Assembly: GCA_964016885.1 (NCBI GenBank)
Contig: OZ024746.1
Coordinates: 34,534,001 to 34,598,000 of the forward strand
Length of the DNA: 64,000 bases
Direction of reading: 5' to 3'
Source of the DNA: Eledone cirrhosa
Taxonomy: Eukaryota
The notes under the pieces were generated by a model. The model made no database searches. It was given only the letters and a program-made list of their open reading frames with translations, and was not told the origin of the DNA. A program made the position numbers and the translations under genes. Each line of letters begins with the position of its first letter. Positions within the stretch are counted from its first letter, which is position 1. Below are positions 6,646 to 48,537 of this stretch, one piece after another.

Positions 6646-6721
<76 letters not shown>

Positions 6722-13698: not shown

Positions 13699-13750
13699 TA
13701 TGAACTTGGGACCCAGGCTGAGGAGGTCTAATTCCTCTCGGGAGAGGTAA

Positions 13751-14513: not shown

Positions 14514-15034
14514 TAGGGCCTCTAGCCCCACTTTACACACCCCACACACACGCACGCACACACCCCCACTTATTCTCTCTCACACATACACACACAAAAC
14601 CAGTTCTAACACCAGATAACACCTACCCCCCACTTTTACGATTAGACCTATCTTCCCACACTCACACACACACACATACCTACACCTTCATGCTTTCTCC
14701 CACACATACAGGCACGCATATAAAATTTACATAACACAACAAAAACATAAACAAACCCCTCTTAAAGGGAGACTACTCTTTACCCACCTAATTTTAATTC
14801 TTTGATATTAAAGTTAGAACTCTATACTATTTCCGGTCAGCATGGCTTCATTGGAAATTTAGACGCTGGTCTGAGACTTTTACTTCCCTCCGAAGAAGAG
14901 ATATTATCTCGAAAATTAAGGACATTTAAATAAATTCAAGGTGAAAGACTAATTCTCACCAATATCTCTCACTATTGCATTCTTTTTCTATGTCCATATC
15001 TGCATTGTCTTGGCCTTATTACACATATTCTAAC

Positions 15035-15104
<70 letters not shown>

Positions 15105-20774: not shown

Positions 20775-20874
20775 AATGTAACGTGTAGGTCTGTAGGTTC
20801 AACCGAGTGAGCAATCGATGCGTAGTCTCCATTCGGTAAAAAGGTGAATAACTAAACAGAGTGTAGTTATAATA

Positions 20875-21060
20875 ATTGTTTCTACTTTTTCTCACAAGGT
20901 CAGCAATTATCTCAGTGTATTACTGGTACTTTATTTTATCTACCCCCATAAGGAAGAAAGGCAAATTTAACCTCGGCACGATTTGAGCTCAGACTGCAAA
21001 GGGATGTAACTCTATGCTGTAAAGCATAGCGTCCGACCATCTACCGATACTGCCAATCCA
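20875..21060 (-). mobile_element. tRNA-derived SINE
   Basis: Same family as 42545-42733 (CAGTGTATTACTGGTACTTTATTT, GAAAGGCAAA, GATTTGAGCTCAG). Confidence 0.8.
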
Positions 21061-21513
21061 AATGGGTTCATTAAGTGGAGACATTCGTTTTGTTATTTAT
21101 TGAGTTCGAGTTCAAAGTTCGATCTGTATTAATCTAGCCCGACTCTGGAATCCTAAGCTCGTCGAGCCTCTGCTGTGCTAATTACAGAATTAACCTGGAG
21201 GGATTAGAAATGTCTATAACGATTCACATTCATTTATGGTGGTTTTGATTAATGTTTGTTTTGATTGGTGGTTTTGCTATGAGGACTATTTTGGTAGGTG
21301 TGATAGGTGGAAGGGTAGGATCATAATGAAGAGGTAGTGGGGAGTGGTGGTGTGATTTGTGAGGGTGTGGTGTTTTGGCTGTTTCATAGACATTGTGGCA
21401 TATATGTGGTGAGGCTGGGTGTGGGCTTGGAGGTGGTTATGAGCTATGCGGGATGGGAGTGAAATAGTGTCGTCCTGTTCTAAGGATGGGGAGTTCTGTT
21501 AGTCAGTGGTTGA

Positions 21514-24500
21514 TCAAAGAGGAATAAAATAAAATGTCGAAGTGGAGTCTCCGCTGATTGCCGTTTCCGCTTCGTAGAGGGCTGTGAGCGCCTGTAGGCA
21601 CTCGAGGTGCCAGGCATCCATTTTCGGTCTTCGCTTGACCCAGGACTGCAGCTCAGTTAGTGAGACGAGTTGTGAAAGAGCTTGTCTCACAAACGACAGC
21701 CACACCGGTTCACCGGTCAGGAATACCTGGAGATTGCGTAGCCTCAGCGTATGTTTGCGGATCATCAGCCACGGCTGCCCAGCCCTCCGTTAGAAGGTTG
21801 TTGACAGCAGATGGATCTCCTCACCAATGGAGCCTGTTTCTTCCAGAGGAACTTGAAGAGTAGGCGTTCCATTTGGTGAGATGTTCGCGGGGGCAAGGCA
21901 CAACTGTCAAGCGGTAGTAGATGACGGACGCTATGTAAGTTTTCTCCACCTCCGCTTGACCTTTCAATGTGAGTGTTCATTCAGCCCACTTCTGGCTGAG
22001 TGCAACACCTTCGCCGTGACATCGTTCCAGTTCTTGTCCACCTGGATGTCTGAACCGAACCAGACCCCGAGCAATTTCACCGGTCCTTCCGTCCAGCGTT
22101 CAACGAGACTGTCGGAAGGCATGGTTTTGCCTCTCCATGTGCGAGTTGCAAACCGACGGACTTGTTTCGCTTTAGTCTTGCTCCTGTCAACGTTTCGTAT
22201 TCCTGTAATAGGTTGCCGATTACCCTGATTTCCGAGGTTTTCGACACCATTACGGTTATGTCGTCGGCATAGGCTGACGCTGCTTTCCGCAGTCCTGGTT
22301 CGATCGGGATGCCCTGCAACAGTTCCAATTTCCGCAGTAACGGCTCAAGAGTCAGTACATACAGAATGGAGGAGAGAGGGCATCCCTGACGGATGGAACG
22401 CAGAATTTGGAATGGCTCTGATAGGTAGCCATTCACCTTGACTGCCGAGCAGATGGTGGTGTGCATGGCAGCGATCCAGCCTCTAAAGACGGGACCCGAG
22501 CCGGCCGCCTTGAGAACTGCTTCCAAGTATTGATGGTCGACCCTATCTAAATTGATCAGAGCCCCACCGAAGCCAGGTTTACCACCCAACCCTCTCTCTG
22601 ACGTATCGCAGGAGGTGGAGGTTGTCGTGTATGGACCTGATCGGGATTGCACACGTTTGGGCTTCCCCTACCAGGTTCTCGACGACAAGCGCCAGCCTTG
22701 CTGCTAACACCTTGGCCAAAATCTGTAACTCCGTGTTGAGCAGAGTTATGGGCCTGGAATTGTTTATCTCATCCTCCTTGTTCTCATATTTCCTTATCAG
22801 CCTTACTATGCCTCTGCCTACAGAACTGGGAATCCTCCCGTTCTGCTGCCAGTTACAGTAGACCGCTTCGAGGACGCCAGAGAATAAGTCTGGCATGCCT
22901 ATGTAAATCGGGTGATTTGCGTTTCCCGCAGCGGCCTTTCGCAGCTCTCCGCATCCGTGCTCGAGAGTCGAGGTACGCCGTCGAGGTAGGAGCTGAAGTC
23001 CATCACCTCGCTCGATGTACCGCTTTGCCCGAACAGTTGTGCAAAATGCTGCTGGAAGGCCGCGCACATCTGCTTGGATTCAAGTATAATGCGTCCATCT
23101 TTGTCTTGCAAAGACCGAATTGTGGATTTGTTGCCAATTTACGCCTCTGCCACTCGGGCCCAGCTAACAGCTTTGGCTCCCTCGTTTCTTAGAGCAGGTG
23201 TTCTACTTCTGACAATACACCCTTCTTACTTCACGCGAAGAACTGGTCTAGTGCCGTTCTCGCCGCTAGCACATCAGCTGTACTGCCATTCCTAAGTGCC
23301 CCTTCTATTTTAGCTACAAGTTCCTTTTCCGTTTTGTTATATTCTAAAGCTACTTCCTTGATAAATGCTATCGATTCTATTCTAATTGCTCTCTTGAGAG
23401 AGCTCCACCACCTGTTGTTGACGATCGGCCCCGTCAACTGGCACTTTATTAAAGTGCTAATCCGTTTACTGTACGCCTTACGCGCCGGGAGCGACCTGTT
23501 TAGCTTCCAGTATCTGGGTACATGTCTATGTGTTCTATCAAGGTTGACTACGCAGGTGACTAATTTGTGGTCTGAATAAGCAACCATGTGCATTTGTGGA
23601 CAGTTTAATGTTTCCTTATCATTCTGTCTAATTAAAGATCTATTTAATACGATCTAGAAGACCCAGTGCGGTTGCGTACGTCCACAGTGGTGCACTTGGG
23701 AAGTCTAGTCGATGTCTATCAGCCATTTGGAATTGGCTGATGAAATTCTTTGAGGCTATTACACCCCCATCTATTATCACAAGATCCTACATAGTCCCAA
23801 ATTGCGCTAAGATGCCGTTCCAGTCCCCCGCTAACACTAAGGAGCGAGACGTTCCCAGGAATGGCTCAAGACGCTTGAAGAACTCTGGATGCTATGTCCT
23901 AGTCGGGGCATATACGGCTACCAGTCGGAAAGCTGCACCATCACTACCATTCACGTCCAGGTCTACCAGGCTGCCCTCCGGATCCTAGTGAATCGTCTGT
24001 ATTTTGAGATCCAAGTTTTTTCGAAACAGAACAGCAACTCCCCCTCCACCTCCTGGCTGACAGAGAGATGCGTAGATCTCAAAATCATCGAACATGGGCG
24101 CCAGCTGCTGCTTGTCGTGAATCCTGGACTCGGTGATGGCTATCACATCTATACAATGTGACCTGCCATCATTTAAATGCTGGCCCTGTTTCCAGGACAT
24201 GCCCAGGCCACGTACATTGGAACATCCAGCTTGTATAGTCACCATGTTGGGGAAGAAGAGTTAAGGAGCCAAAAGGCAGGAACACTTACCTTTTCGTTTC
24301 CTGGAGGTCAGGTTGTTCGATCTCCATGTCCAGATTGGTGGTGTTTGGGGAGGGAATCCTTTTAGCAGGACACGGTGAAGGGGCTTTTTGCAAGGGGGCC
24401 CACATCATGTGAGAAGTTCTCTTTTAAAGTTTCATATTGTAGGGTTGTTACCCTGATAAGTTTGAGGTTTGGGGGTGGGTCGTAGGTTCGGGAAGGTTTT

Positions 24501-26127
24501 CCCTTCCGTTTGTATTGTGGGGTCTTTTCGGACAGTTTCCACCAGTTCTTTGTTTCTTGTTTTTATGTATGTGTAGTGTGATTTGTTTTTGATGTGTACT
24601 GTTTCTCTTTGTAGTTTTCTTTTTGTGGTTGGTGTTTGTTTTGTTGGTGGTGTGGGTGTTTGTTTTGTTGGTGAAGTGTTTGGTTGTGTTGGTGGTGATT
24701 GTGTTGTTGGTGTATTTGTCGTTTGTGGCGGTGTGTTTATGGTGGGGTTAGTGTGTGCGTGTTTTCTGTAGAAGTTTTTATCTTTTTTGTGTCTTTTTTG
24801 TTTTTTGGATTTTTGGGGTTCCTCTTCATTCTCACTTGGAGATGTAGAGGTTCACGTATTTGAGACTTCTGAATCAGAGGTAGATGGGAGGGTTATGTTG
24901 TGTGGTGGAGTTGTTTGTGCAGGTGTTTGTGGAAGTATTTGACAGGGGGGAGTGGGGCAATCGAGGGTTTTTCAGTGGGATTTTGTGTGTGTGGTTGTCT
25001 CTGGTCTGTGAAGGTGTCGGAGTGGATGTTGCAGTTGTTTGTGTTGTGTTTGGTTTGGAGTGTTGATGTTGGGGTTTTGGTGTTGGTAATAACACCTTCT
25101 TTGTACTCGGCTTGTTTAAGAAAGGGCTAAAGGCCTTTAAGTGTGTGGTTTTCCCACACTTATGGCACTGAGGTCTTTTCCCCTCCACTAACATGTAGAT
25201 GACATATTCCTAAAGGACGATCCTGTCCGGTATTTTTTCAACTCTCTCTGGCCTCATTTGTACCAGAACCTCTATGCAGGTTCCAAACCAGTTATGCCGG
25301 TATGTCCTGTCTACAGATAGGAAGGTGTCCTCATCTTTCTTCAGGATGAAGCGTAGGATCCACCATATGTTGACCTCTGCTGGGATCCTGGTTATTTTTA
25401 TTTTGTAGGATCTTCTTCCCATGTATGTGGGGAAGAAAATGTGTTGATCCGTTTTTATTGGGTGAACCGAGTGTTTATGTGCCAGAGTTTCGCTCTTAAA
25501 GAGCACTGACACACTTCCATACTGTTTAGCCCTTTGGAGGTATGCCACGTCTGGCTTGATGTCTTTTAGTGCAGCTTCGATATTGCTTGTTGGGAGCGTT
25601 ATGGGTTTTTGGTAGTGATGTCAACTGTTCTATAAATTAGCTTTTTTTTGTCTGTCATTTCTCTTACTTTTGGGGGTAGGTGTATGTGTGGGTGTCTCCC
25701 TCAAACGTCACATAGTTGGAAGCTTCTTCCAAATATTGGGACTTTTGGGAAATGTCCATGGAGTAGTATTTAAAATCCTATTGCTTAGCAACTGTTGCTG
25801 CAAATGAAATGTTGTCATTGTTGTTGTTGGTGGTGATGATGGTCTCATTCGTTGTGTTGCTGATTTCTTTTGTTGTGTTGTTGTTGTTGATTGTGTTGGT
25901 GTTAGTGTTTGCTACACATACTTCCTTCTGTGTGTGGGTAGACGTGACGTTTGTGACGTCAGGCGTCTTCAGTCTCTTACACGCAGCTGAAGCTTATTCA
26001 TCTTCTAAATGTTGAGGCGATAATGTGGCATTCCTTTGTCCATGTCTGCTACTACCTGCTGGGCAAATAGGCATGGCTTCCCATCTTCTTGTTTTGATAA
26101 AGAAGTAGATGCCTTTGCTTCAGCCAT
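21514..26127 (-). pseudogene. Decayed L1/Tx1-like LINE (ORF1 with CCHC knuckle, APE endonuclease, RT); many frameshifts, 3'-truncated
   Basis: Fragments NVRGL, YSDHK, YWKLN, RPITLLN, IRQGCPLS, AYADD, CHKCGKTTHL, collinear with 27059-32360. Confidence 0.92.
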
Positions 26128-26427
26128 TTAAAAAAAAATTGAAGTGTTTTGCAAACATTTTTTTTAAATATTTAGGATTTTTTTGCCCTGAAGGGCACGA
26201 TATTTTGGGTGACTGACCAGATCAAAATTTGACCTGTCAGTCACTCTACAAATTGGTATAAAAATAAAAGTTCACAATGACGAATTTCTAAAGAAATTTA
26301 AACAAAACTTACCGAGCAAGTTTAATACATGTGTCCATCCCAGAAGGAAAGATAGATAGATTGATAGATAGATAAATAGATAGATAGGTACATATAGTTA
26401 TCGATGGATACATGTGCATATATATAC

Positions 26428-26509
<82 letters not shown>

Positions 26510-26989
26510 TAAAACATGTCAATAGAATCACAAGATAAAATATATTCTATTTCCTCTCCCAAATAGCATAATTAACTATAAAAAATCGAATAGACCAGGC
26601 TATACGAATGAGGCTTCTATGAAGGAATCTCCGACAAATAACCAAATCTAGCGCTTCGCGTCCGCCGTAGCGGAATATATATATATCCCATTACTTTGTA
26701 CTTAATACAAATAGCCGCCTGCACTCGTTATCCCAGAGCAAAATTTACATTTATAAATGCCACGCAATCTATAAAGTTATAAGTCATCAATAAACCACAA
26801 TATAGTATAAAAGTAAAACAATTCAGACAGATCCTCGTCTCTCACACACTTCAAATGGTTAAAAGCCAATATGACACTCGTGCAAATAAAAAGAAAATCA
26901 TACACAAGCATATAGGCATAAACGCAGATAGATAGACACATACATATTTAGATTTACTTGTCCACACGCATCCATCCCTCTATATATCC

Positions 26990-27041
<52 letters not shown>

Positions 27042-27058
27042 CTCTCTCTCTCCATATA

Positions 27059-28634
27059 CACCAATAACAATAACAATAACAACAACAACAAGACCAATAA
27101 CGGTGACAACAACAACAATGATAACAACAACACCACCAACGACAACAACAACACAAACAAACAAAATTTCTCCTTCGCCGAGACGACAAGGAAAACCCTC
27201 GACTATCTGCCAGTAGATATAACAAAAGCGAAGGAGCTACTGGCGGATGCGAAAAAATATATAGTGTACGGGGAAAATGGTTCATTCACAATCCATTCCC
27301 CCCCGGAACTAAAAAGCCAGAGACTCCTAAACACGGTCATGTTTAGGACAATCTCGAACATAAGTAAAAAACCAGCTCAACCATCACAGAGCGAGATAGA
27401 GCTGGTTTTAAAAGACGTCATGAAGGACATCACCTTCATTCAGAAGGATAGACTCTACGGGAGTCTATCCATTCTCATGAAGGACAGGGACACAGCAGTG
27501 AAACTGTCCATCAAACCAATCACATCCACCGCATACACCTTCTACCCTACGTACATGGGTAGAAGAACACAAAAAATAAAAATCCACACCATCCTGCCGA
27601 TTATGGACATATGGTGGGTTTTGACAGGTTTTCTGGACCTGGAGGATGACATGCTGGTGTCCATGGGAAAGGCATCGGGTGACGCGTTCAGTGGAACGAG
27701 CCTCGAACTTGTAGTTCAAATGAGGCCCGAAAGGATCGCCCAGATCCCTGAACGCGTCATACTGGATGATCTAACCTTCATCAACATTACCGTTGAGGGT
27801 AGACGGCCCTCGTGTTACCTCTGCGGAACCAGAGGTCACCTGAGGGCTGTCTGTCCCCAACTTAATAAGAAAACCCCAATCCTGCCTACACCACCAACAA
27901 CTGCACAACCAACACAATCACCACAACTACCACTACAAAAACAACCACCACAGCTCAAACCAAAACAAAACAATGTCCAACCCATCCCCTCCACTCAAAA
28001 AACAAAAACAATTTCCAAAACACCCGTACCGCAAACACAACCCGAAAATATACCCCTCCCCTCCAACGCGGAAGATGACCCTAGTTCGTCGTCAGACGAG
28101 GAGGAGCACTTCCACACAATCAAAAGAAAAAAAAGAAAACACACCTCAGACACACAAATGAAAAAAAACCCTCCCCAAAACATAACACGGACACCAACAC
28201 AAAAGAGCTCACAACAACAACAAACAAAAAACACCACACAAAAACAAAAACATGCATACACATACATAAATACAAGAAACAAAAAACTGTTAAACATTGT
28301 GTACAACAACAATCTAATAAAAACACAAGGGCCTAACTTCACCCAGGCAGGGGATTTCCCCCACCTCAAAATGATTAAGGCCCCACAGGACACCTATAAA
28401 ACTTTAAAAAACAATTTTAAAGAGGACGTGGGTCCCCCCTGCGTCGGGCCCATTAACCGCGTCCTCCTAAAAAACTATCCCACCCCCTCCCCAAACACCC
28501 ACACAACTCCAAGCTCCCCAACCACACATCACACTGATGCCCCCACACTTCCACAAACCACCACCCCACCCAACAACCCATCCCCCACCCTAATGGAAAT
28601 TGTGCAGCCCGATACCCGGGACGCAGAGAGGTAA
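27059..28634 (+). CDS. LINE ORF1: gag-like zinc-knuckle protein with P/Q/T-rich linker; native start codon lost
   Basis: CYLCGTRGHLRAVC (CX2CX4HX4C); homologous to ORF1 remnants of the other two LINEs. The track's N-terminus is microsatellite read-through. Confidence 0.85.
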
Positions 28635-28658
28635 GTGCCTTTTCTCTTCACCACCAAC

Positions 28659-31600
28659 ATGGCTATGCTAAGAGTAGGCTATTTAAATGCGCGTGGCCTG
28701 GGCTCAACTTGGAAGCAAGCAATGCTTCTAAATGACCTCAGGTCACAACGTATAGATGTGATGGTTATTTGCGAGGCCCGGATCAGCAACGTGCGACAGC
28801 TGGCCCCCACCTTTGATGACTTTGAGATGCACGCATCTCTCTGTCAGCCCGGAGGCGGGGGTGGAGTTGTCGTTCTGCTGCAAAAACATCTGGGTCTCGC
28901 AACACAGATGGTACATTTGGACCCGGAGGGTCGACTAGTGGTTCTGGACCTTGGCAGTGGTAAAGGCGGAGCGTTTAGGTTGGTAGCCGCCTACGGCCCT
29001 TTCGGGTCAATGCGGCCGGACTTCTTCCATCGTCTGGAGACTTTTCTAGGGACGTCCCGCTCCTTGCTATTAGTGGGGGACTGGAATGGTATCCTAGATG
29101 CACGCTGGGACTACGTAGGGGCCTGCCCCGATAGAGAGGGGTGTAATAGCCTCAAAGGGTTAATCGGTCGATTTGACCTGGCCGATAGATATCGACTAGA
29201 TTTTCCGACTGCGCCAACCTGGACTTGGGCAAATCGTAGCGGATCATCTAGGTCGTACCTAGATAGGTTCTTAGTTAGAATTAAGGATAAGGACTTTTTA
29301 AGTTGTCCAAAAATGCGCATGGTTGGCTATTCAGACCACAAATTAGTGACCTGCATGGTCAACCTTGACAGAACTCATAGACAGGGCCCCGGTTACTGGA
29401 AGCTCAACTTGTCCTTGCCGGCAAGTAGAGCCTACAGGAATCGGATTAGTACGTTAGTTAAGGAACGGTTGACTGGAGCGATCGTCAACAGCAGGTGGTG
29501 GGTATCTCTAAAGAGAGAGATTAGAGTAGTCTCGATAGAATTTAGTAAGGTTCTAGCTGCGGATAGGAATAGGAAGGAAAGGGAGCTAATAGATAGAGTA
29601 GAAGAGGCAATTAGAAGCGGCGACGTGGCCAGAGTGCTAGCGTCGAGAACGGCTTTGAGCCAGTTTTTCGACGCGAAGCACGAAGGCTGCGTTGTCCGAA
29701 GTAAAATACGTGCTCTAGGGAACGAGGGGACCAAAGCTGTTAGCTGGGCCCGCGTGACAGAGGCCAACAGTGGAACTAAATCCACCATCCGGTCTTTGCG
29801 AGACCTGGATGGACGAGCGATTCTTGAGCCTAAGCAGATGTGTGAGGCCTTTCAAAGGCACTTTGCCCGACTGTTCGGGAGGGGCGGGGAGCCGGTTGGG
29901 AACGTGGACTTCGGTCCATACCTCGACGGCCTGCCGCGCCTCTCGGACAGGGAGGCGAAGTCCTGCGAGGAGCCGATTTCGGCCGCTGAGATAGAGGACG
30001 TGCTGAGCCAATGCGGCAAACGCAAATCCCCGGGTCTCGATGGTCTTCCTTACGAATTATATCTAGCTATGCCGGACTTGTTCCCCGATCTCCTCGAGGT
30101 GGTCTACTGCAACTGGCAACAGAACGGGAGAATTCCCTGTACTGTGACCAAGGGCGTAGTCACGCTAGTGAGGAAGGACGAGAACAAGGGGGACGAAATA
30201 AGTAACTTCAGGCCCATAACACTGCTAAATACAGAGTTACAGATTTTGGCCAAGGTGCTAGCAAAGAGGTTGGCGCTTGTCGTGGGCAACCTGGTGGGAG
30301 ATGCGCAGACATGCGCTATCCCGTCCAGGTCCATCCATGACAACCTCCACCTCATGCGATACATCATAGAGAGGGTTGGGAACGAACCCGGCTTTGGTGG
30401 GGCTCTGATCAACTTGGATCAATCTAAGGCGTTCGATAGGGTCGACCATGGTTACCTGGATGCGGTGCTAGCGGCGGCAGGCTTCGGACCCGTTTTCAGG
30501 GGCTGGATCACTGCTATGCACAGCAGCCGCATCTGCTCTAGGGTCAAGGTGAACGGCTACCTCTCGGAGCCGTTCAAAATCGCGCGGTCCATCCGACAAG
30601 GGTGCCCTCTCTCCTCCCTTCTGTATGTGTTGACTCTCGAGCCACTACTGCGGAAGTTGGAGTTGTTGCAGGGCATCCCTTTGGAACCGGGATTGCGGAA
30701 AGCGGTGTCGGCCTACGCCGATGACGTGACAGTAATAGTGTCGACGGCCTCCGAAATCGAGGCGGTCGGCACCTTACTGGAGGAGTACGAAAAGTTCACA
30801 GGGGCTAAGCTGAACCGGGAAAAGTCGATCGGTTTGCAACTCGGCACGTGGAGGGGCAGACCGATGCCCTCCGATGGCGTCGTCGGACGCTGGACGGAGG
30901 GCCCGGTGAAGTTGCTCGGGGTCTGGTTCGGACCGGACCTCCAGGTGGAGAAAAACTGGGCGGAGGTTACGAACAGGGTGTTTGCACTGACCCAGAAGTG
31001 GGCCAGTTGCAAACTATCCCTGAAAGGTCGGGCGGAGGTGGCGAACACCTACATAGCGTCCGTCATCTACTACCGCCTGACCGTAGTGCCCTGCCCAAGG
31101 GAAACCCTCACCAAGATGGAGCGCGCGCTCTTCCAATTCCTTTGGAAGAGGCGGGCTCCTATGGTGAGGAGATCCATCTGCTGTCAACACCCTTCGAAAG
31201 GAGGGCTGGGGATGACGTGGCTAATGATGCGTAAACACGCATTAAGGCTACGGCACCTCTACGTATTCCTCACCGGACAACCGGCGTGGGCCTCGTTTGT
31301 GAGACGAACCTTTCCCAGACTCGTCTCACTCACCGAGCTGCAATCCTGGGTCAAGCAAAGACCGAGAAAACTGGGCGCCTGGCACACTGAGTGTGCCCAG
31401 GCGCTCACCGCCCTCTGGCAGGCGGATCCGGTTATCAGTGGAGACTCCACCGCAACATTCTATAGAGGGCTGGTGCGCAGCAAGTGCGACGACGCCCTCG
31501 GAGAAGCCCTAGACATGGAGGAGGACGAACTGGCCAGCCTGTTCGGTAGGACATTCAGCCCGGGACCTATGGACAACTTCCAGAAGTCCCTGGCCTGGCA

Positions 31601-32096
31601 GTGCTACCGAGGGGCTTTACCCGTTCGAGAAAGGCTCTACAGACACGGGCGCCCGGGTAGGGACCCCGCCAAAAAGATCTGTCCCAGATGCGTGTGCGAC
31701 GAGGAAACCGTTGCACACGCATTAGTACACTGCTCGGGCGTAGCCGATGTGTGGGGCTATGTCGAACAACTGCTGTCAAGGGTGGGACCGATCCGGTTGA
31801 CCACCGAGTCTATTGTAATGATCAAGCCGCCTCCCCCCTTCAAAGATGAAGCAGAGGCGGTGTTTCTGTACGTAATAGCCATGGCGAAAGAGGTTGTATG
31901 GTGGACGCGTCTGAAAGGACTGAGGTCGGGCACCTTTCTCTCTGGCCAACAACTGGTCCGTTTCTTCCGATATCATTTCGGAAGAAGGATCAGGATGGAG
32001 AGAGAGGTGCTGCACCCCAGCCGTTTCTATGAAAGATGGGTGAAAGTGGCGAGAATGGCCCGTGTGAATGGGCCTTCACTCTACATCAGACTATAG
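28659..32096 (+). CDS. LINE ORF2: APE endonuclease, RT, C-terminal zinc-finger region
   Basis: NARGL, GDWN, YLDR, SDH, KSPGLDG, DQSKAFD, QGCPLS, YADD, CPRC...ETVAHALVHC. The ATG at 28659 is in a CAACATGG context. Confidence 0.96.
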   Translation: MAMLRVGYLNARGLGSTWKQAMLLNDLRSQRIDVMVICEARISNVRQLAPTFDDFEMHASLCQPGGGGGVVVLLQKHLGLATQMVHLDPEGRLVVLDLGSGKGGAFRLVAAYGPFGSMRPDFFHRLETFLGTSRSLLLVGDWNGILDARWDYVGACPDREGCNSLKGLIGRFDLADRYRLDFPTAPTWTWANRSGSSRSYLDRFLVRIKDKDFLSCPKMRMVGYSDHKLVTCMVNLDRTHRQGPGYWKLNLSLPASRAYRNRISTLVKERLTGAIVNSRWWVSLKREIRVVSIEFSKVLAADRNRKERELIDRVEEAIRSGDVARVLASRTALSQFFDAKHEGCVVRSKIRALGNEGTKAVSWARVTEANSGTKSTIRSLRDLDGRAILEPKQMCEAFQRHFARLFGRGGEPVGNVDFGPYLDGLPRLSDREAKSCEEPISAAEIEDVLSQCGKRKSPGLDGLPYELYLAMPDLFPDLLEVVYCNWQQNGRIPCTVTKGVVTLVRKDENKGDEISNFRPITLLNTELQILAKVLAKRLALVVGNLVGDAQTCAIPSRSIHDNLHLMRYIIERVGNEPGFGGALINLDQSKAFDRVDHGYLDAVLAAAGFGPVFRGWITAMHSSRICSRVKVNGYLSEPFKIARSIRQGCPLSSLLYVLTLEPLLRKLELLQGIPLEPGLRKAVSAYADDVTVIVSTASEIEAVGTLLEEYEKFTGAKLNREKSIGLQLGTWRGRPMPSDGVVGRWTEGPVKLLGVWFGPDLQVEKNWAEVTNRVFALTQKWASCKLSLKGRAEVANTYIASVIYYRLTVVPCPRETLTKMERALFQFLWKRRAPMVRRSICCQHPSKGGLGMTWLMMRKHALRLRHLYVFLTGQPAWASFVRRTFPRLVSLTELQSWVKQRPRKLGAWHTECAQALTALWQADPVISGDSTATFYRGLVRSKCDDALGEALDMEEDELASLFGRTFSPGPMDNFQKSLAWQCYRGALPVRERLYRHGRPGRDPAKKICPRCVCDEETVAHALVHCSGVADVWGYVEQLLSRVGPIRLTTESIVMIKPPPPFKDEAEAVFLYVIAMAKEVVWWTRLKGLRSGTFLSGQQLVRFFRYHFGRRIRMEREVLHPSRFYERWVKVARMARVNGPSLYIRL

Positions 32097-32399
32097 GTGA
32101 GGAAGATGAAAGACCAAGGGAGCACCTCTTCTCTGTGCTCCTGAGGAGAAGGGTTGCACACCTTTTTCGGGGGTGTGTGCGACCCCCCAAGGCGCCTCCT
32201 CTCTATTGAGGATTTTGTTAAAAATTTATTTTTTGTTATATCTTATTTTATTTTTATATTTTGTTATTGCCTCCTCCTTATTGAGGACGCCTTTTTGTGT
32301 AAACTCCCCCCTTTGTACTTGTCCCACTTTTGATGCCCTAGTGGCAAATAAAAGAAATATATCTATCTATCTCTCTCTCTCTCTATATATATATATATT

Positions 32400-32440
<41 letters not shown>

Positions 32441-32747
32441 TCATATACAGAGCTGGAAATTCATCACTATAGTATACATCTGCATGTATACATACACACA
32501 CACATATATATATATCGTTATATCCCGTTGTCAAGAAGACTGAATCTATGCAATAGCTGAATATATACACCTGATTACATAAATGTATAGCCTTGTTCAT
32601 ATAGTTATACATACATGATCGTATACCTAAATATACTTAGATTGAACCACACGTACGGAAAAATCCATACACAAACATGTATGCAAATATATATACGTCA
32701 ATATATATATTCTGTTACTTCCTTACATTCTCTCTTCTCCATGACAG

Positions 32748-32803
32748 GTTCAATTGATGACAGCCTGGTTTTACAGATCCAGTGTTTGATCAGCAAGATG
32801 GAG
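32748..32803 (+). CDS. Possible small host-gene exon (SIDDSLVLQIQCLISKME)
   Basis: Long pyrimidine tract + CAG acceptor, GAG|GTTAGG donor, open frame. No homology recognised. Confidence 0.25.
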
Positions 32804-33036
32804 GTTAGGCAAAATTGGAGTTGAGTAAACAATATCGTTTAACATACATGGCATTGAATGATTTGTACAGTTGTTCATATACCTGCAGAATAAACAGAAA
32901 TCACAATACGTTTTTCGTCCTTAATTAAACACACATATACACATACTTACACACAGATACTCACAAACATATTTACACACACACACATACACACACACAT
33001 GCACACACACACACACGCACACACACACGCGAACAC

Positions 33037-33170
<134 letters not shown>

Positions 33171-33854
33171 CGAAGCGACATTGAATCTAATAAACAAATA
33201 AAAAGACATATATATCCACCATAGACTGACATCAAGAAACTGATCAAAGCGCCCTTGAATATTGATAAATTATATCTCAACTCACTCAGTTTATTCAGCT
33301 ATTAGGAAATGAATAGAGGATGTGTTTGACTGAGCGACCGACTAGCAATATAATTGCGTTGTTCACCATATTGCTTCCGGTAGTTCGATGCATTAGCTGC
33401 TAGCCGTCTAATATCGTTCGACTCAGTAAATATTACATGTATATTGTGTGGGACACTCTATCATCCTCTCACAATATCTCATCCACCTCATCCTCTCTAT
33501 CTCTATATTTCTTTCTCTCTATCTCCTCCCCTCTGTGAATCACTGCTGTGCGTATTAATTCTCTTTGTTTTTCCGTTTCTCATATTTTATTTTACTCATG
33601 ATACATACGGCTAATGTCCACCAGCTGCGTTAGAACACATTCTGTAGAAAATATTATGGATTAATAGACATACAGGTGCATGTGAATACACACACGCACG
33701 TATATTTATATATGTGTGTGGGGGGGGGGGGGGTTGTCTAATAGGTATGTTTATATATGTATATATAACAAATAGGCTGTTTCACTTAACACACCGATCT
33801 TTTCCTTTTTCTTCCCTTGCATATTTTAGGCGCCTAATGACACACACACACACT

Positions 33855-33994
<140 letters not shown>

Positions 33995-34457
33995 TATAAA
34001 ATAACATGTATACTTAAAACAACATTTTGCTGGTACTTGCTGTTACACATGTTATATTATAGGTATCACTTACTGAAATCTGTGCTCAGATATTGTAGTT
34101 GTCTAGCTGAAATCTTGTCGGTTGGATCTGTTTAAATGATATAATTCGTTGCTTTAACGTCTGAAAACTTGCTATTCTCCCTTGTTCTGGTTAGGTATTC
34201 ATACCTGGTTATCTTTATTCACCAGATTACATGCGTAAATATATTATACATAGTGTTAGACATATTTGACACGATAGTAACATGGAGCTGCTGAATTTCT
34301 TAAATGTCATAGTTTAGGACAATTACACAAACGAATGTGTTCATATACAGAGTTGGAAATTTATCACTGTCGTATTTATGGTATGATAAGAACAACGTAT
34401 GTTCCCATTTAGGTATACGTTTGCAAAAACATCTCGGCCCTCTCATAATTGTATCTG

Positions 34458-34620
34458 CTTTTAGCACAAGGCTAGAACTTACCCCAGTGCATTACTGGTA
34501 ATTTATTTTATCCATCCCGTAAGCATGAAAGGCCAATCTAACCACTCCAGGATTTGAACTCAGAATGTAAATCGCCATAACTCTATGCTGCAAAGCATGG
34601 TATATGACGCTCTACCGCAT
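34458..34620 (-). mobile_element. tRNA-derived SINE
   Basis: Same family as 42545-42733. Confidence 0.78.
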
Positions 34621-35660
34621 CATAATGTTCAACAAAACTTTGCAAACATGTCCTCTTCATATTTCAGCAGAAATTGAAACATCAGAATAACCCCAAATAA
34701 AAGTTTAATATAAAATAACAAGCTAAAACATAGAAAAGGAAATAAACATATATATGCCATTTTGGATAATGCATCCGGAGAATCGGCAAAGATTCTATTA
34801 AGTAGAACGTCAATATTATTTTATTTTAATCTTTTTTCAAAGTTTTCCGTTGAGCAAAATATTCCACTGCCCTTTTAAATATTCGACCAACTGTTTCACC
34901 ACTAAGAACAAGATTTGAATCTGGCAGTGATATGTAAATTAAAAGCACCATTTTCTAAATACCATCTATGGGGTACACGTCTAATCACACGTACTTTAAG
35001 CACTGGGAGGTATCTAATCGAATTACACCGATTAGATATATATCCGTTTGTTAATGACGGTCTGGATGAAAACATCTGCAGGCAGATGTTTTCATCCAGA
35101 CAATATAACAATACTTTTGATTTGACAGCTATTTACTGATATGTTAGGAGGAACGGAATTGTATCCGCATGATGTATGACAGGAAAGGCAACCCTGCATT
35201 GATTCGCAAATTGATACAAACCTATTTTTTTCTGTTACGACAAACATAAACAAAAAATCTACATATATATATGACGTCCTTTCTTTCATTCAATGTTTGT
35301 AAAGTGGATATTCATTTTTTCTGATAAATACAATTTACATCTATTACAAACGGTGCACGTTAAATGTTTTCCCATGATATTCCAGACACAATATACAATA
35401 TGTCTATATAAATTACACATATTTATTCTTGCTGTGAAATCTTTAAACTGTGATAATATCACATCACTCTTAATATTGCTGTAAGAACCGTGAATGTATG
35501 TATCTAAGAGAGACATCGAGTTATGAGAGATATTAAAGTATGATATATTTTGTAAAGCTTCTTTCCTTGTAAAGGTAATTATATATAGTCCAAGTTTGAA
35601 TTGTTTGTGTTAATTAACAATAGTTAGAATATATATATATTTAAATATATATATATAACA

Positions 35661-35700
35661 GCACTGATGAAGAGTAATAACCAGATACATTACTGTCTGC
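35661..35700 (+). ncRNA. Degenerate HHR relic
   Basis: GCA / CTGATGA / eroded stem II / GATA in place of GAAA / ACA-ttac-TGT-C / TGC. Confidence 0.4.
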
Positions 35701-35918
35701 AGTTTTGTTTACATGCCAACACAAGAGCAAAAATGAGGAGCTCATTCTTCTGACATGGCTTTAAAAATGTGGCTTGTTTTCATAATTGCAAACGAATCAA
35801 ATATTATTATTAATATTCGAAAAACTCAGATTACATTTATTAGAGCGAAACATTTTTTTCAGTTACTATATATATATATATATATAAATGAAATCATTAT
35901 TATTATTATTATTATTAT

Positions 35919-38900
35919 TGGCGACCTACGTAGTAAATCGTATCATCGTGAGCTCCGCAAAGGTTTGTTATTTCCGTTTGTTAAAAATTGTCATTTATGG
36001 AAAATGTTATTGTTAACTGTTTATAAGCGCACATACATTGTTTTCCGAAAAGGACACCCAAAAAGATTGGGGCCTTGTGCCCAAAATTTAAACTTTTATT
36101 ATTATCAAAAAAATTTCTTTGAAAAAAATGGCTAATTCACCTCTGCACGAAGCAGCTGAAAGCCTTCCTCACAAAATAACACCTCACACCGACACCACCA
36201 TTGTAAATGTTACTACGTTTGCCAACACAAAAAAAAATATAAGCACTAGCAATATTTTAAATTTGTCTCAGGCAGACATTCATTTCCCGCCATTACCAAT
36301 GACTGCAGGTGTTAAAGCCTCCACCACCACCACCACCGCGACAACCACCACCACCACCACCACCACCGCGACAACAGAAACAAAAGAAGAAAAAAATAAA
36401 TTAACTCGTGATGTCAAAATAAAATCAAGCAAAATGGACTCTTCCCCACCAAAGACGACTGACGTCACCACCACCACAACTGAAACTAAAATTAATATTA
36501 ACACAAATAACGATAGCAACAACAACAACAATGACATTATAAAAACGCCCCTCAGTTAGAAAATGCCAGACAGATGGTAAAGAAAGTTGGGTACAGGGTC
36601 AGCCTCACCCCCCCCCCCCCACACCTAATAAAATGGAGCATCGGCGCCTATGCACCGTGTCGTATAGAACAATAAATGTAAAATCGCGCCGAGTGGAACG
36701 GGCATCCGAGTCCCATGGGACATGTGTGGGCAAGAAAAACCCACATCAAACGTGGGCAAAAGTATGGAACCGTGGACGTGTTCTTTGAAACACCAGAGGA
36801 GGCTAGAGAACACTCCATGGCCCCATTAAGAAGTGACGACTTCACACTCGTCCCAACCTATTGTGGCCAGAGACTCGTAAAGATCAGGGTGACCCACGTT
36901 CCACCGGCCATCGAAATTCCCTGGCTAATAGCGGCTGTCCTCGCCGGCATCGGAGCCAACACGAAAATAATAGCAATAGCAAAAGAAAAGCAGGAGAACT
37001 GGTCCGGATCTGAGATGGAGCTCCTGATCCAAGCGGACCAAAAAAGCATTGAGGAGATCCCAGAGGTAATAGACCTCACTGACGGCAGCCACCTCACGGT
37101 AATTGTCGAGGGCAGAAGACATAGGTGTGTCGTTTGTGGTGAAGGAACCCACCTAAGGGCTTTCTTCCCTCAGGCTAAAAGGTTGAAGCCACTTCTCCTA
37201 CCCACCCCAGTGACACAACCATCAACACCACCAGTAGCAGAAATGGCAGCAACAACTGTAGCAGCAACAAGAGAAGCAACTATAACAGCAACAACGCCGG
37301 CAACAGTAGCAAAACCACCACCACCACCACCACCAGCAAAACCAACACCACCACCAACCAACGCTTCAGAACTAGCACCAGCGCCTACACCATCCACCAC
37401 GCCACAACCAAAACTAACGGCTGTGGAGGATTTTCCACTCCCCGGCCTATCACAACTGGAGATAGATTGTGACGACGAGGAGTGGGAAACGATATCCGGA
37501 AAAAAAAAAGAAACCAAAAAAGAAAAAATTCTCTTCCTTCCCCCTCCAAAAACAAAATAGAGGGAAACAAATAAATTAAGAAACAAAAAAGTTAGGACAG
37601 ATATGCCACTATCCACACCAGCATCACCAACCCCATCAACCCAAACACCAACACCACCACCATCATTAACCCCAACACCACCATCACCTACACCACAAAA
37701 GTCACCAAAATGTGAAACAGAAACAACCCACAACAAACGCAAACAAAACAAAACAACCAAAACGATACACACTACACAGCATTAAATTTGAACAACAAGC
37801 AATTATTACACTACATCCAACACAACACCAGCATCACAGAAAAAGACTACACAACAACCCCAAAATTCACACCACCTCCACACATACAAATCACTCGCAT
37901 CACACAGAAAACGTACATGACACTAAAACAAAAATTCTCCAAAGACATCGGAGACTTCCGACAAGCACTCTCCAGGAGGATTTATAAGGACATCCTTCCT
38001 GAGGAGGCCACAAGCAGTGAAAAGGATGGAAAACCCGTCCTTCCCCTACGAGAAGTAAGGTAAGTGGTCTTTCCCCATCTTTTCCACTCCTTTTCAACAT
38101 GACCTCACTCAGAATAGGCAGCATAAATGCGCGTGGCTTGGGGTCGTCATGGAAGCAGGGCCACCTGCTCAACGACCTCAGGTCACTAAACATAGATGTA
38201 GTGGCCATCAGCGAGACCAGAATCTCCGAAGCACAGTCTTTCGCACCGATCTTCGGCGGCTACGATGTGTACGCATCTCCCAGCAGTCCGGGATCGGGGG
38301 GAGGAGTTGCTGTGCTTTTTCGGAGAGGTTTGGATCTTGCCATACGGGCCATCTTCCTGGACCCAGAAGGTAAGTTGGTGGTGCTGGACGTGCCAAGCTT
38401 TCAGGTTAGTGGCCGTCTATGCCCCGACAGGAGCAGGGCGGCCTGATTTCTTCCGGCGTCTGGAGACCTTTCTTGGAACGTCCCGCTCTTTAGTGTTAGT
38501 GGGCGACTGGAACGGGATCTTAGATGCACGCTGGGATTGTGTGGGATTAGTGGATAGGGAAGGTGGGTGCAAGAGTCTCACCAACCTGCTCAGACGTTTT
38601 GAACTGTCTGACAGGTACCGAATGGATTTCCCAAATGTACCAATGTGAACTTGGACAAATCGCATAGGGTCATCCAGATCATATCTAGATAGAGTATTTT
38701 GTAGGGAAATAGATAGGTCTAGCATAGGCTGTCCACAATTCAAGATAGTCAGCTACACGGACCACAAATTCGTGATTTGTGTGCTTGACTTAGATAGGCT
38801 TCATAGATGAGGACCCGGCTACTGGAAGCTAAACGCGTCCTTACCAGCGCGCAAGGCCTACAGAGACCGGATTAGCGAACTAGTTAAGCGGGCGTTGACG

Positions 38901-41755
38901 GGGGCCATCGTCAACAACAAGTGGTGGTTTGCTCTGAAAAGAGCAATTAGAATAGAGTCCATTAGGTTTAGTAAGACTTTAGCAATAGAGAAAAATAGAG
39001 CAGAGGGAGAATTAGTTAGAAAATTAGATGAGGCGCTTAGCAAAGGCATCGCGACCGACGTACTTGCGGCGAAATTGGCCCTTGACCAATTCTTCAATGC
39101 AAAGCACGAAGGCTGCGTTGTCAGAGCTAGGGTGCGTGCTCTCAGACACGAGGGGACGAAAGCCGCTCAATGGGCCCGAGTGGCGGAGGCGCGTCGTGGC
39201 AACAAAGCCACGATCCGGTCTTTGGTGGACCACGACGGGCGCATGCTACTCGATCCCGGGCAAATGTGTGAAGCTTTTCAGCGACACTTCGCTCAACTGT
39301 TCGGGGGCAGTGGCGGGCCGGATCGAGGGATGGACTTTAGTGTCTACCTCTACGGACTGCCACGGCTTTCGGCCACTGAGGCGGAGTGTTGCGAAAAGGC
39401 TATAACAACCGCTGAAGTACGGGATGCAATGACTAGTTGTACAAGGGGTAAATCGCCTGGTTTAGATGGTCTGCCCTATGAACTTTACGTACAAATGCCA
39501 AACTTGTTCGGAGGCCTCTTGGCGGACGTCTACTGCAACTGGCAACAGAACGGGAGAATTCCCAGCTCTGTGAGCCGAGGAGCGGTGGCGCTGCTGAGAA
39601 AGGATCCGAACAAGGGGGATAACGTAGATAAGTTTAGGCCCATAACTCTGCTAAACACAGAGTTCAAGATTTTGGCCAAGGTGCTAGCAAAGAGGTTGGC
39701 GCTTGTCGTTGGTGGTCTGGTGGGAGAGGCACAGACATGCGCCATTCCCGACAGATCCATTCACGACAACCTCCACCTCATGCGATACATCGTAGAGAGG
39801 GTAGCTAGGGAACCTGGCACGGGTGGGTCTTTGATCAATTTAGATCAGTCGAAAGCCTTCGATAGGGTCGACCATCGTTACCTAGCGGCAGTCCTGAGGG
39901 CGGCTGGCTTTGGGCCCGTCTTCAGAGGCTGGATCGCTACCATGCACAGCGACATCTGCTCTGTAGTGAGAGTGAACGGTCACCTTTCGGAACCGTTCAA
40001 CATCATGCGCTCGGTCCGCCAAGGATGTCCCCTCTCGTCCCTATTGTACGTATTGACTCTCGAGCCATTACTGCACAAACTGGAGACGTTGAGGGGGGTC
40101 CCGCGCGAACTAGGATGCGGAAGATCCGTGTCAGCATATGCCGACGATGTCACCGTAGTGGTGTCGAACGCCAAACATATCGAGGCGATCGGCACTATAC
40201 TAAGAAAATACGACGCGGTGACAGGAGCAATGATGAACCAGGAAAAGTCAGTGGGCCTGCAGCTCGGCACCTGGAGAGGCAGGTCCATGCCGTCCAACAG
40301 CGTCGTCGGGCGCTGGATGGACGGACCGGTTAAATTGCTAGGGGTCTGGTTCGGTCCAGACCTCCAGACGGACAAAAACTGGGACGAGGTGACGAGCAGG
40401 GTGGCTTCTCTCACCCAGAAATGGGCCGAGAGGAAGCTATCCCTGAAAGGTCGAGCAGAGGTGGCTAACGCGTACATCGCGTCCGTCATCTACTACCGCC
40501 TGACCGTCGTACCTTGTCCTAAGCCTCACTTGACTGCGCTGGAGCGTTTGCTCTTTCGCTTCTTGTGGAAGGGACGCGCTCCGATGGTCAGGCGGTCCAT
40601 CTGCTGTCAACACCCGCTACGTGGAGGGCTAGGCATGCCGTGGCTGATGATGCGCAGACACGCGCTCAGGCTACGACATCTCCACCTCTTCCTCGACGGT
40701 GAACAGGTGTAGTCGCCGTTTGCTAGACACGTTTTTCCCCAGCTGGTCTCCTTGACGGAGCTGCAGTCCTGGGTCCAGCGAAGACCGAGAGGGAGCGCTT
40801 GGAGACTGGAATGTCTTCAGGCGCTCACAGCCCTCGACCAATCGGGAAATGTGATCGGTGGAAACTCCACCTTGGCGTTCTATAGGGGATTAGTGGAGGG
40901 GAAGAGCGACGACGTACTTGGAGAAACTCTAGACGTCGACGAAAATCAACTAGCCAATCTCTTCGGAAGGACTTTCGGGCCGGGGCCTATGGACAACTTC
41001 CAGAAATCCCTGGCCTGGCAGTGCTACCGGGGTGCTTTGCCAGTTCGGGATAAACTTTACAGGCATGGAGGTGCCGTCAGCCGGGCATGTCCGAGATGCG
41101 CACAGGGCGACGAAACCGTCCTGCACGCACTCGTCCAGTGTCCGAGCATTGCTGACCTGTGGATTTATGTCGAACACCTTCTGTCACGTGTAGGACGGAT
41201 CGAGCTATCAGCTGAGTCCATCGTGAGGATTGCCCCGCCCTCTTCCTTTAGCCAGGAAGGGCAGGCAGTTTTTATCTGCCTGGTGGCCATGGCGAAAGAG
41301 ATAGTATGGTGGACACGTTTGAAAGGGCTGAAGACGAGCACTTACCTCTTCGGTGATGCCCTGATTAACTTTTTCAAATTTCATCTGAAAAGGAAAATCA
41401 GGGTAGAGGGGGAAGTGCTCTCTTCCCAGCATTTTGTTGAAAGATGGGTGAGAGAAGCAAGTATGGCCCGAATAAATGGGCCTTCTCTGAGTATGTGTCT
41501 GTAAATTAAAGGTGGAAAACTGGGAGAGGGCACTTGCCCTGGTGGTCAGGGCCACTGTGGTCTTTTAATGGGCTTTCTCCACAAATGTCCCTCGGAAGTC
41601 TCCCCCCCCCCCCCCTTATTGGGGAATGTTTCTTTGTTATTTTATTTCATCCTCTGTTTTTTTACACGCAGAAATGCCCATTTGTACCGTCCTGTATTGT
41701 CCTGTACTGTCTTTAATGTCTACTTTATGTAAACCCTTGTGGTTAATAAAGAAAA

Positions 41756-41756
<1 letters not shown>
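35919..41756 (+). mobile_element. Full-length but decayed L1/Tx1-like LINE inserted in (TTA)n
   Basis: 5' UTR follows (ATT)n. ORF1 runs from 36129 to 38063 (frameshifted); ORF2 runs 38099-41504 with frameshift and stops. AATAAA is followed by (TTA)n. Confidence 0.93.
38099..41504 (+). pseudogene. LINE ORF2 (APE + RT + zinc finger) with frameshift near 38395 and stops near 38648, 38810 and 40712
   Basis: Highly similar to the 1153-aa ORF throughout. Confidence 0.93.
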
Positions 41757-41800
<44 letters not shown>

Positions 41801-42242: not shown

Positions 42243-42544
42243 TGCGCAAACAGAATCTGCAGTCGCATTTGTTGTAGTAATTTTGTGGTTGTTATAATGG
42301 ACATAGAATTTGCGTTCGTTATTATTTAGACGTCATTGTATCAGCAGTAGTGTTTGTTATTATATTTGACGTAGTATTATTTAATCATATGTATTATGAC
42401 ATGTGATGAGAATTTTGAAAAAATCGTCTTCGTCTAGTATTTGACATAATAGTTGTATTTTGAAATTTGTTATTGATATGAGTATTATATATCATATCCT
42501 GTTCATAGAATGGTGGGTTTCATTCCGATAAATCATATTTAATT

Positions 42545-42733
42545 AATTGTTTCTACGTTAGGCACAAGGCCAACAAGTATTCAGTGTATTACTGGTACTT
42601 TATTTGATCGACCCCGTAAGGATGAAAGGCAAAGTTAACCTCGGCGGGATTTGAACTCAGAATGGCAAGGGCCGTAACTGTATGCGCCAAAGCATGGCAT
42701 CCGACACTCTACCAATATTGCCAATCCACCGCC
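42545..42733 (-). mobile_element. tRNA-derived SINE with a central domain resembling the Meta/Sauria-type core
   Basis: Minus strand: A-box-like TGGCAATATTGG, B box GAGTTCAAATCCC, then GCCTTTCATCCTTACGGGGTCGATC...AGTACCAG. At least four copies in the window. Confidence 0.85.
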
Positions 42734-48170: not shown

Positions 48171-48214
48171 ACCGTCTATGCATTTCAGACTTAACTGGCC
48201 TTCGTCAGGACGGT
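48171..48214 (-). ncRNA. Minimal type I HHR
   Basis: Stem I ACCGTC/GACGGT, core CTGACGA, stem II AGGC-cagttaa-GTCT, GAAA, palindromic ATGCAT, ATA triplet. Confidence 0.88.
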
Positions 48215-48493
48215 CCCTCCCACCGGTTGCGACTGCTGGACTAGAAGACAGCCGAGCATATATACATTTCTCGTCTGTGTAAATGAGGTGATTAATCTCA
48301 TTTGCATATGAAGCTGCATAAGTTGGCTCAACTTATAATAAAAAAGAAATAGGATTTCGCTTCAAGCATAGCTTTATACAATATGTATAGATATTTCGTA
48401 TATCCAAGGAAATACGGCTTTAGGAAGCCGTAACTATGCAGACACCGGGGGGCTATCGCCCTCTGGTGATGTCCAGCAGAACCAAGGAGGACA

Positions 48494-48537
48494 ACCGTCT
48501 ATGCATTTTAGGCTTAACTGGCCTTCGTCAGGACGGT
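48494..48537 (-). ncRNA. HHR, second unit; GAAA changed to AAAA (probably inactive)
   Basis: Same as 48171-48214 but with a G12A change. Confidence 0.75.

Follow-up and report, generated by a model that had tools for sequence, protein, structure and literature searches.

Evidence for selection of a U1-type 5′ splice site where ORF1 ends in LINEs of Eledone cirrhosa and of a distant LINE family

A stretch of 64,000 nt from Eledone cirrhosa (contig OZ024746.1, positions 34,534,001 to 34,598,000; hereafter the window) contains three related long interspersed nuclear elements (LINEs) with two open reading frames (ORFs) each: copies A and B on the plus strand and copy C on the minus strand. In all three, the end of ORF1 carries a perfect 5′ splice-site consensus, AG|GTAAGT. 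The same consensus is retained at the ORF1/ORF2 junction of a distant LINE family. Probably, this signal allows the element to excise ORF2 or to use U1 for the control of its expression.

The ORF1/ORF2 junction of the three LINE copies

In the following, D1 denotes a donor-like site in the 5′ untranslated region (UTR), D2 the donor at the ORF1/ORF2 junction, and D3 a donor-like site at the ORF2 stop. A sequence search located the 9-mer AGGTAAGTG, described in the initial annotation, at 28629-28637 (+), 38058-38066 (+), and 24291-24283 (-), with CAACATG downstream at 28655, 38095, and 24249 (-). D2 spans 28629-28636 in copy A (GT at 28631), 38058-38065 in copy B (GT at 38060), and 24284-24291 on the minus strand in copy C (GT at 24289). 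Inspection of the frames confirmed that the TAA inside the motif is the ORF1 stop in all three copies (28632-28634 in A, 38061-38063 in B, and 24288-24286 in C). For copy A, the stop was read directly from the open reading frame holding ORF1 (26952-28634). The ORF1s of B and C are interrupted by stops and frameshifts, and their stops were assigned by the frame that bears the conserved ORF1 C-terminal domain or tail. In copy B, an out-of-frame TAA precedes D2, as in the distant family.

The spacers between the two ORFs have the lengths given initially, namely 24 nt in A (28635-28658), 35 nt in B (38064-38098), and 40 nt in C (24246-24285, minus strand). Their core is 85-89% pyrimidine, AG and ATG are absent, and each spacer ends in CAAC. 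The accompanying claim that the spacers shift the frame holds for B and C but not for A, in which the ORF2 frame (28635-32096) follows the TAA. Read-through from ORF1 into ORF2 was rejected because the frame is kept in only one of the three copies. The description of the ORF1 ends as otherwise divergent proved not to be general, as A and C share a homologous ORF1 tail. Both the pyrimidine spacer and CAACATG are particular to the window family, the distant family having neither. The most plausible reading of CAAC is an initiation context, because CAAC-T-ATG also precedes ORF1 in several types of array units of the distant family. U-rich tracts after donors help U1 recruitment through TIA-1, and by analogy the pyrimidine spacer may aid recruitment of U1 to D2.

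The 9-mer occurs four times in the window, compared with 0.2-0.55 expected occurrences; the fourth copy (41347, minus strand) lies antisense inside ORF2 of B. D2 is the sole sense-strand site that matches the donor consensus at at least 8 of 9 positions in copy A, and likewise in C. Among sense-strand sites, no other perfect donor exists in A, in C, or in two related loci (L005 and L014). Copy B has two further donor-like sites early in ORF2 (38368-38375 and 38403-38410), which are not present in A or C. The three copies are kin, with pairwise ORF2 identities of 69, 61, and 59% and with agreement of all three at 104 of 256 fourfold sites, so that alone they are weak evidence for conservation of the motif. 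For the window alone, survival of the motif by descent has a p value of ~0.07 if the three free bases after the stop are counted and of 0.005-0.01 if five to six free bases are counted.

Conservation in a distant LINE family

Scanning genome contigs with the ORF2 alignment yielded 45 loci, whereas a prior scan had given none. The counts below comprise 43 of them; L041 and L042 (26-28% identity) were excluded, L042 being without a junction and L041 showing only a weak AA|GTAAAT. Forty-three of the 45 loci stem from a single record of a metagenome-assembled genome (MAG), CAXXMW, whose contigs are head-to-tail LINE arrays. ORF2 of this distant family is 40-41% identical to that of copy A, and the ORF1s match the window ORF1 profile with E values of 2e-15 to 4e-17. 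Agreement at fourfold sites is near random (63/221, 60/220, and 65/207; 25-26% expected).

AAG|GTAAGT was present in 52 of the 55 distinct ORF1/ORF2 junctions of the distant family (overlaps removed). Shuffling of a 90-nt junction of this family produced the motif in 0.14% of the cases. Since their ORF2s are 92-97% identical, the 52 junctions count as one lineage, and the evidence amounts to two saturated lineages plus two ORF1 proteins. The arrangement around the motif differs from that in the window: the ORF1 stop comes before the donor, the AUG follows 13 nt after the GT, and both the pyrimidine tract and CAAC are missing. Relative to the donor, the TAA occupies positions +2 to +4 in the window and -4 to -2 in the distant family, and D2 always lies within ~10 nt of the ORF1 stop. 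The sequence is invariant from -2 to +6, while base +7 varies (28 G, 18 C, and 6 T among the 52 junctions). All eight bases of the invariant 8-mer match the reverse complement of U1 nucleotides 3-10, taken from the U1 gene of another organism in L041. The motif thus has the U1-complementary 5′ splice site of a U2-type intron.

A third register is suggested by ORF1 proteins, for which the protein sequence was used. Named relatives of the ORF1 proteins were from Octopus bimaculoides, O. sinensis, and Argonauta hians, which points to a probable octopod origin of the window; they were recovered by a profile search, whereas an ORF1 word-index search gave none. The proteins P0015 (Argonauta) and P0019 end in GKS* and GK*, respectively, which fits the motif in a third frame. 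Such GK-type tails were found in two of eight ORF1 proteins (p ~0.004). One further protein, ending in W, is compatible with the window register, and the other five are uninformative; two of these belong to the distant family, in which the motif lies after the stop. P0046 and P0032, which terminate within the domain, were excluded. P0019 is a complete 603-aa ORF1 on a contig of 2209 nt, which is the size of an ORF1-only transcript and could also reflect a broken assembly.

The L001 family accounts for the three junctions that lack the motif; in it, the ORF1 stop and the in-frame AUG of ORF2 overlap in TAATG. The only perfect donor of L001 is the site after its ORF2 stop. In the tree, L001 groups with the arrays (support 96/94, with a long-branch warning). 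This family represents a natural control for D2.

By the evidence of the distant family, D2 is beyond chance, and a donor consensus is under selection at the end of ORF1, independent of the stop codon. The reading of D2 as a selected 5′ splice site of the U1 type is well supported by sequence comparison, because the motif is kept across saturated silent sites and in another register to the stop, and because its conservation ends at +6. Very probably, U1 reads the site.

Donor-like sites after ORF2 and in the 5′UTR

In the distant family, every one of the 47 distinct ORF2 ends has GTRAGT 14 or 40 nt after the stop, 25 of them as GTAAGT and 22 as GTGAGT, compared with 2-3.5% of shuffles of the first 60 nt after the stop. 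The distance is 0 in copy A, whose D3 (AG|GTGAGG, 32095-32102) overlaps the TAG stop of ORF2; related loci have donor-like sites at the matching position. The initial annotation had pointed to AG|GTG at or just after the ORF2 stop as the possible end of an intron comprising ORF2. The string is indeed present in A (at the TAG stop, 32095-32099) and in B (7 nt beyond the stop), but at positions that do not align. As an acceptor, it falls outside the top 12 candidates, and in copy A it reads as a second donor. An acceptor at the ORF2 stop was rejected; candidate acceptors are located deeper in the T-rich 3′UTR. Both mechanisms suggested initially for the donor motif, splicing-out of ORF2 and a U1 control site, are still the two leading ones.

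Concerning D1, GTAAG was found in the 5′UTR of 37 of 41 units of the distant family (46 unit starts, five of which were dropped because they had no ORF1 AUG 250-500 nt downstream). Copy C carries CTCG|GTAAGT in its 5′UTR (26307-26316, minus strand, GT at 26312), and CTCG|GTAAG recurs in 5′UTRs of the distant family. In L005, D1 forms one arm of a 15-bp stem (1480-1552, z -5.1), in which GTAAG pairs with a downstream complement. Both arms are kept in L003, L008, L010, and L011, and the loops vary. The 5′UTR donor is weaker evidence than D2, because 19% of shuffles contain GTAAG, copy B has no donor-like site in its 5′UTR, the site of L005 is paired, and a YAG within 25 nt of the AUG occurs in just 25 of the 41 5′UTRs.

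Partial splicing as a possible mechanism

Beyond the selected donor motif itself, we infer every step of the following model. D2 would be a U2-type 5′ splice site read by the U1 small nuclear ribonucleoprotein (snRNP) and used part-time, with the spliceosome connecting the ORF1 end to an acceptor within the T-rich 3′UTR. ORF2 would thereby be removed as one retained-type intron of ~3.6-3.7 kb. The short spliced mRNA would provide the bulk of ORF1p, while the unspliced RNA would serve for the synthesis of ORF2p (own AUG, good context, reinitiation) and as the template for retrotransposition. The acceptor would also be open to the weaker donor past the ORF2 stop, in competition with D2. With splicing, ORF1 of the window family would lose its stop, and the last residues of ORF1p would change; as the distant family keeps its stop, a new C-terminus of ORF1p would not be the point. 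Because the spliced product lacks ORF2, it would escape retrotransposition in cis, and the element would keep its intron; LINE retrotransposition is known for such cis-preference (PMC5860796). That partial splicing from D2 to a 3′UTR acceptor yields an ORF1-only mRNA appears to us the likeliest single explanation, though at slightly less than even odds.

Splicing is favored by the position of the donors, which hug the stop codons and stay within the distance relevant to nonsense-mediated decay. This pathway tolerates 50-55 nt between stop and junction. Candidate acceptors exist. In copy A, they end at 32285 (GAG, weak) and 32341 (TAG), both in the 3′UTR. The best candidate of copy B (41640-41671) consists of a T tract followed by CAG, with the last intron base at 41671, 73 nt before the AATAAA at 41745-41750; 9.5% of shuffles equal it. 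In the arrays, a candidate ~250 nt past the ORF2 stop keeps its TAG in all 65 matches (overlapping loci included).

Several observations weigh against the splicing model. An acceptor-like tract was found in all eight scored 3′UTRs, but by our rough score, made for this analysis, 5-61% of composition shuffles perform as well, and the candidates of A fail to align with those of B. D2 is missing from the L001 family, and copy B shows no convincing donor at its ORF2 stop. Genomic retrocopies precisely lacking ORF2, as conceived in the initial annotation, did not turn up among the fetched loci, which were retrieved by ORF2 and reveal ORF1-only copies just as neighbors: the exon side of D2 was matched 69 times, in each case with GTAAGT following. 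Within the window, there is no additional ORF1 end or 3′ end beyond the three copies. RNA spliced at the ORF2-stop donor would be copied in cis, so that loss of this intron is expected, and none was seen; the sole short 3′UTR among 45 complete ones carries a 45-nt deletion without GT..AG ends. Finally, as the first cistron, ORF1 can be translated without an mRNA of its own.

Alternative explanations

The main rival, possible though in our view less probable, is that U1 binds to these sites with little or no splicing. By marking the start of every non-coding stretch, donor-like sites would make an intronless RNA look intron-bearing, with sustained elongation, suppression of premature polyadenylation, or nuclear retention of the RNA as conceivable effects. 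The occurrence of the motif at three stations (5′UTR, ORF1/ORF2 junction, and start of the 3′UTR) fits this explanation, as do the lack of intron loss in the arrays and acceptors that do not exceed base composition. U1 also plays such a second role at the donor of the retrotransposon EVD (PMC5580714). Upstream of D2, the A-rich ORF1 contains two poly(A) hexamers in A, six in B, and three in C. Such hexamers are, however, not consistently enriched compared with shuffles, and with none in ORF2 of copy A and none before the 3′UTR in L005 there would be little to suppress. Both poly(A)-signal enrichment and GTRAG depletion were rejected. U1 binding by itself also leaves unexplained why, with a 3′UTR of ~700 nt, both donors hug stop codons.

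We consider it unlikely that the motif acts at the level of DNA or translation, its likeness to a donor being coincidental. It could then bind a factor or serve as a core-promoter element for a transcript of ORF2 alone, or it could signal termination and reinitiation. The motif does lie 13-44 nt before the AUG of ORF2, and the family without it has the TAATG overlap known as a coupling signal from SART1 (PMC3894237), which hints at a link to ORF2 expression. Furthermore, the 5′UTR donor of human L1 is retained as a RUNX3 site (PMC5860796). Yet the conservation coincides exactly with the U1 pairing window, and the site at the ORF2 stop varies only between A and G at +3. Unlike a termination context, the motif changes its position relative to the stop. 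Six junctions gave no shared RNA structure (z -1.35 to +0.63), and a conserved hairpin at the junction was rejected on these grounds.

Very improbable is a role of the motif AG, or of the spacer-final AC, as the acceptor of an intron that removes ORF1, either recursive-site-like or of the U12 type, to give an ORF2-only mRNA. Donors in the 5′UTR exist, and the spacer of copy C contains CCTTAAC. This sequence is absent from A and B, however, the 5′UTRs of B and C are without a U12-type 5′ site, purine-rich sequence with several AGs precedes the motif AG, and an acceptor would not need GTAAGT. A U12-type intron was also rejected for D2 itself, because the donor is GTAAGT instead of RTATCC and a CCTTRAC-like branch site occurs in C only.

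Even less can be said for an intron of 42-53 nt from D2 to the first AG of ORF2, resulting in an in-frame fusion of ORF1 and ORF2: in A (42 nt) and B (53 nt), the first AG past the donor shares the frame of ORF2, and a pyrimidine tract follows the donor, but we rejected it because the AG is out of frame in C (60 nt) and the ORF1 stop of the distant family precedes the donor, and furthermore all copies keep the ORF2 AUG with its context, and the 12 ORF2 matches (691-1155 aa) include no clearly fused protein. An inherited accident without function, equally remote, would agree with the kinship of the window copies, the single lineage of the arrays, and the three of eight motif bases provided by TAA, but is already largely refuted by the low shuffle rate and by retention of the motif across saturated divergence (63/221 fourfold sites, 25% being random) in another stop register.

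Structure of the copies and other features of the window

Copy A (27052-32358, plus strand) is 5′-truncated inside ORF1 and has an intact ORF2. Its ORF1 (27052-28634) has lost the start codon and comprises a CCHC knuckle, a low-complexity linker, and the conserved C-terminal domain. ORF2 (28659-32096) encodes 1145 aa with APE endonuclease, reverse transcriptase, and zf-RVT domains, and is followed by a T-rich 3′UTR (32097-32358) with AATAAA at 32347-32352. TCTA/TC microsatellite sequence on either side resembles a target duplication. Copy B (approximately 35920-41757, plus strand) is full length and decayed, with a frameshift near 38398, internal stops, and ATT repeats on either side; both ORF1 (36128-38063, ATG at 36128) and ORF2 (38099-41504) are broken. 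A and B each have AATAAA at the 3′ end and the same microsatellite on both sides, which blurs the borders of any target-site duplications. The heavily decayed copy C (approximately 21529-26340, minus strand) lacks its 3′ end and has a broken ORF1 (24286-26127, ATG at 26127) and a partial, frameshifted ORF2 (21529-24245). Small hairpins with a TATT loop were seen by eye in the 3′UTRs, in A at 32190-32290 (CCTC/GAGG twice) and in B at 41610-41625 (CCCC/GGGG); such hairpins are a possible recognition element for ORF2p.

The Pfam domains of ORF2 are Exo_endo_phos, RVT_1, and zf-RVT, and the best match among solved structures is human L1 ORF2p (E 3e-47). With APE endonuclease, reverse transcriptase, and a C-terminal cysteine-rich domain, the window copies have the ORF2 of the L1 group (L1/Tx1). 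The separate ORF1 of this group is present as well; it shows a CCHC-type knuckle in the alignment, gave no Pfam domain match, and resembles CCHC and ZCCHC3 RNA-binding clusters in the Atlas (0.90-0.92). L1-Tx1 is a recently active class in Octopus vulgaris (PMC13282606), and we use this label in the sense of the class reported there, our tree containing no named reference elements.

The CAXXMW contigs (L003-L045; 13-94 kb) consist of head-to-tail LINE units of 6.4-6.8 kb without spacer, in which several 5′UTR/ORF1 types are combined with near-identical ORF2; 5′-truncated units are present. The record is that of a bacterial MAG, the contigs are evidently eukaryotic DNA, and the arrangement recalls telomeric or self-targeting LINEs. 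In L041, a distant two-ORF LINE (26% ORF2 identity) is flanked by a U1 snRNA gene and an incomplete copy of U1 (2104-2267 and 9029-9205); this LINE is possibly an element targeting U1 arrays.

Elsewhere in the window, we found several Penelope-like sequences. One element (11206-15041; reverse transcriptase and GIY-YIG, ORF 11734-13824 on the minus strand) has a 1291-nt inverted copy of 99.9% identity. A second ORF (7200-8833, plus strand, in two frames) is located between 495-nt inverted repeats (6717-10080), and a fragment occupies 56115-56861. A 1079-aa ORF on the minus strand (59235-62474) with a long Asn-rich stretch is similar to the ORF at 11734 (E 1e-16). Four identical 466-nt tandem copies (1-1875) and a 323-nt tandem repeat (48015-48778) adjoining an N gap (48935-49134) may be assembly features. 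A dispersed repeat of ~190 nt, resembling a short interspersed nuclear element, occurs at 20871-21063, 34445-34617, 42535-42728, and 53809-54003 with 77-83% identity; ARAGORN and Rfam gave no match to it, and Rfam none anywhere in the window.

Comparison with known systems

Searching titles and abstract openings, which mostly leaves subscription papers and Repbase reports uncovered, we found no description of a conserved donor at the ORF1 stop of a LINE. HAL1 (half-L1) elements are ORF1-only LINE derivatives. A retrocopied RNA spliced at D2 would resemble them, and none was found among the fetched units.

How a bicistronic LINE RNA balances abundant ORF1p with scarce ORF2p is described as an open question (PMC3894237). 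In SART1, the two ORFs are coupled by a stop-start UAAUG at their junction (PMC3894237). The L001 family has the corresponding TAATG, whereas the window copies have no overlap but spacers of 24-40 nt and a donor consensus instead. We may speculate that these LINEs are disguised intron-bearing genes with donors in the 5′UTR and at the stops of both ORFs, those at the stops competing for an acceptor in the 3′UTR. ORF2 would be a retained intron under regulation, and the ratio of ORF1p to ORF2p would be set by alternative splicing and not just by translation, with the sister family that lost the junction donor relying on UAAUG coupling. If the donor is used, these LINE copies would also be exon traps inside host introns.

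Splice sites have been described for other non-LTR (long terminal repeat) elements. Drosophila TART shows good splice-site consensus at positions kept across subfamilies, and introns are named in transcripts of L1, Tad, and Penelope (PMC1636488). TART thus resembles the window LINEs as a non-LTR element with conserved splice-site positions, but its introns reside in antisense UTR transcripts and not at a sense donor at the ORF1 stop. Human L1 likewise has retained a splice donor over long times (G98U99 in the 5′UTR), the use of which gives SpIREs and is a dead end; its retention is explained by the RUNX3 site (PMC5860796). The position of this donor parallels D1, and its proposed sequestration in a structure (PMC5860796) has a counterpart in the stem that contains D1 of L005. 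The human donor differs from D2 by its location in the 5′UTR, and the passages of that paper considered here name no donor at the ORF1 stop.

A close parallel is provided by Ty1/copia elements, which generate a spliced GAG-only RNA through a conserved U1 site, as in shGAG of Arabidopsis EVD and with the 3-kb intron of Drosophila copia (PMC5580714). Splicing yields an mRNA for the structural protein only, the unspliced RNA serves as template and enzyme mRNA, and U1 additionally blocks premature termination (PMC5580714). The window LINEs share with them the conserved U1 site at the end of the ORF for the structural protein. Ty1/copia elements are, however, LTR elements with one gag-pol ORF, in which splicing creates the GAG stop, whereas the window LINEs are non-LTR elements with two ORFs and an ORF1 stop of their own, and splicing is only proposed for them. 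They are no members of the Ty1/copia shGAG system, as they have no LTRs and no gag-pol ORF, but may work alike. To judge from the sequence comparisons, the donor at the end of ORF1 is a real, selected feature, and a copia-like or U1-based strategy would be new for a LINE. A lineage that kept a perfect donor at its ORF1 stop over saturating divergence would be a case in which the strategy of copia, or a use of U1 without splicing, evolved in a non-LTR element.

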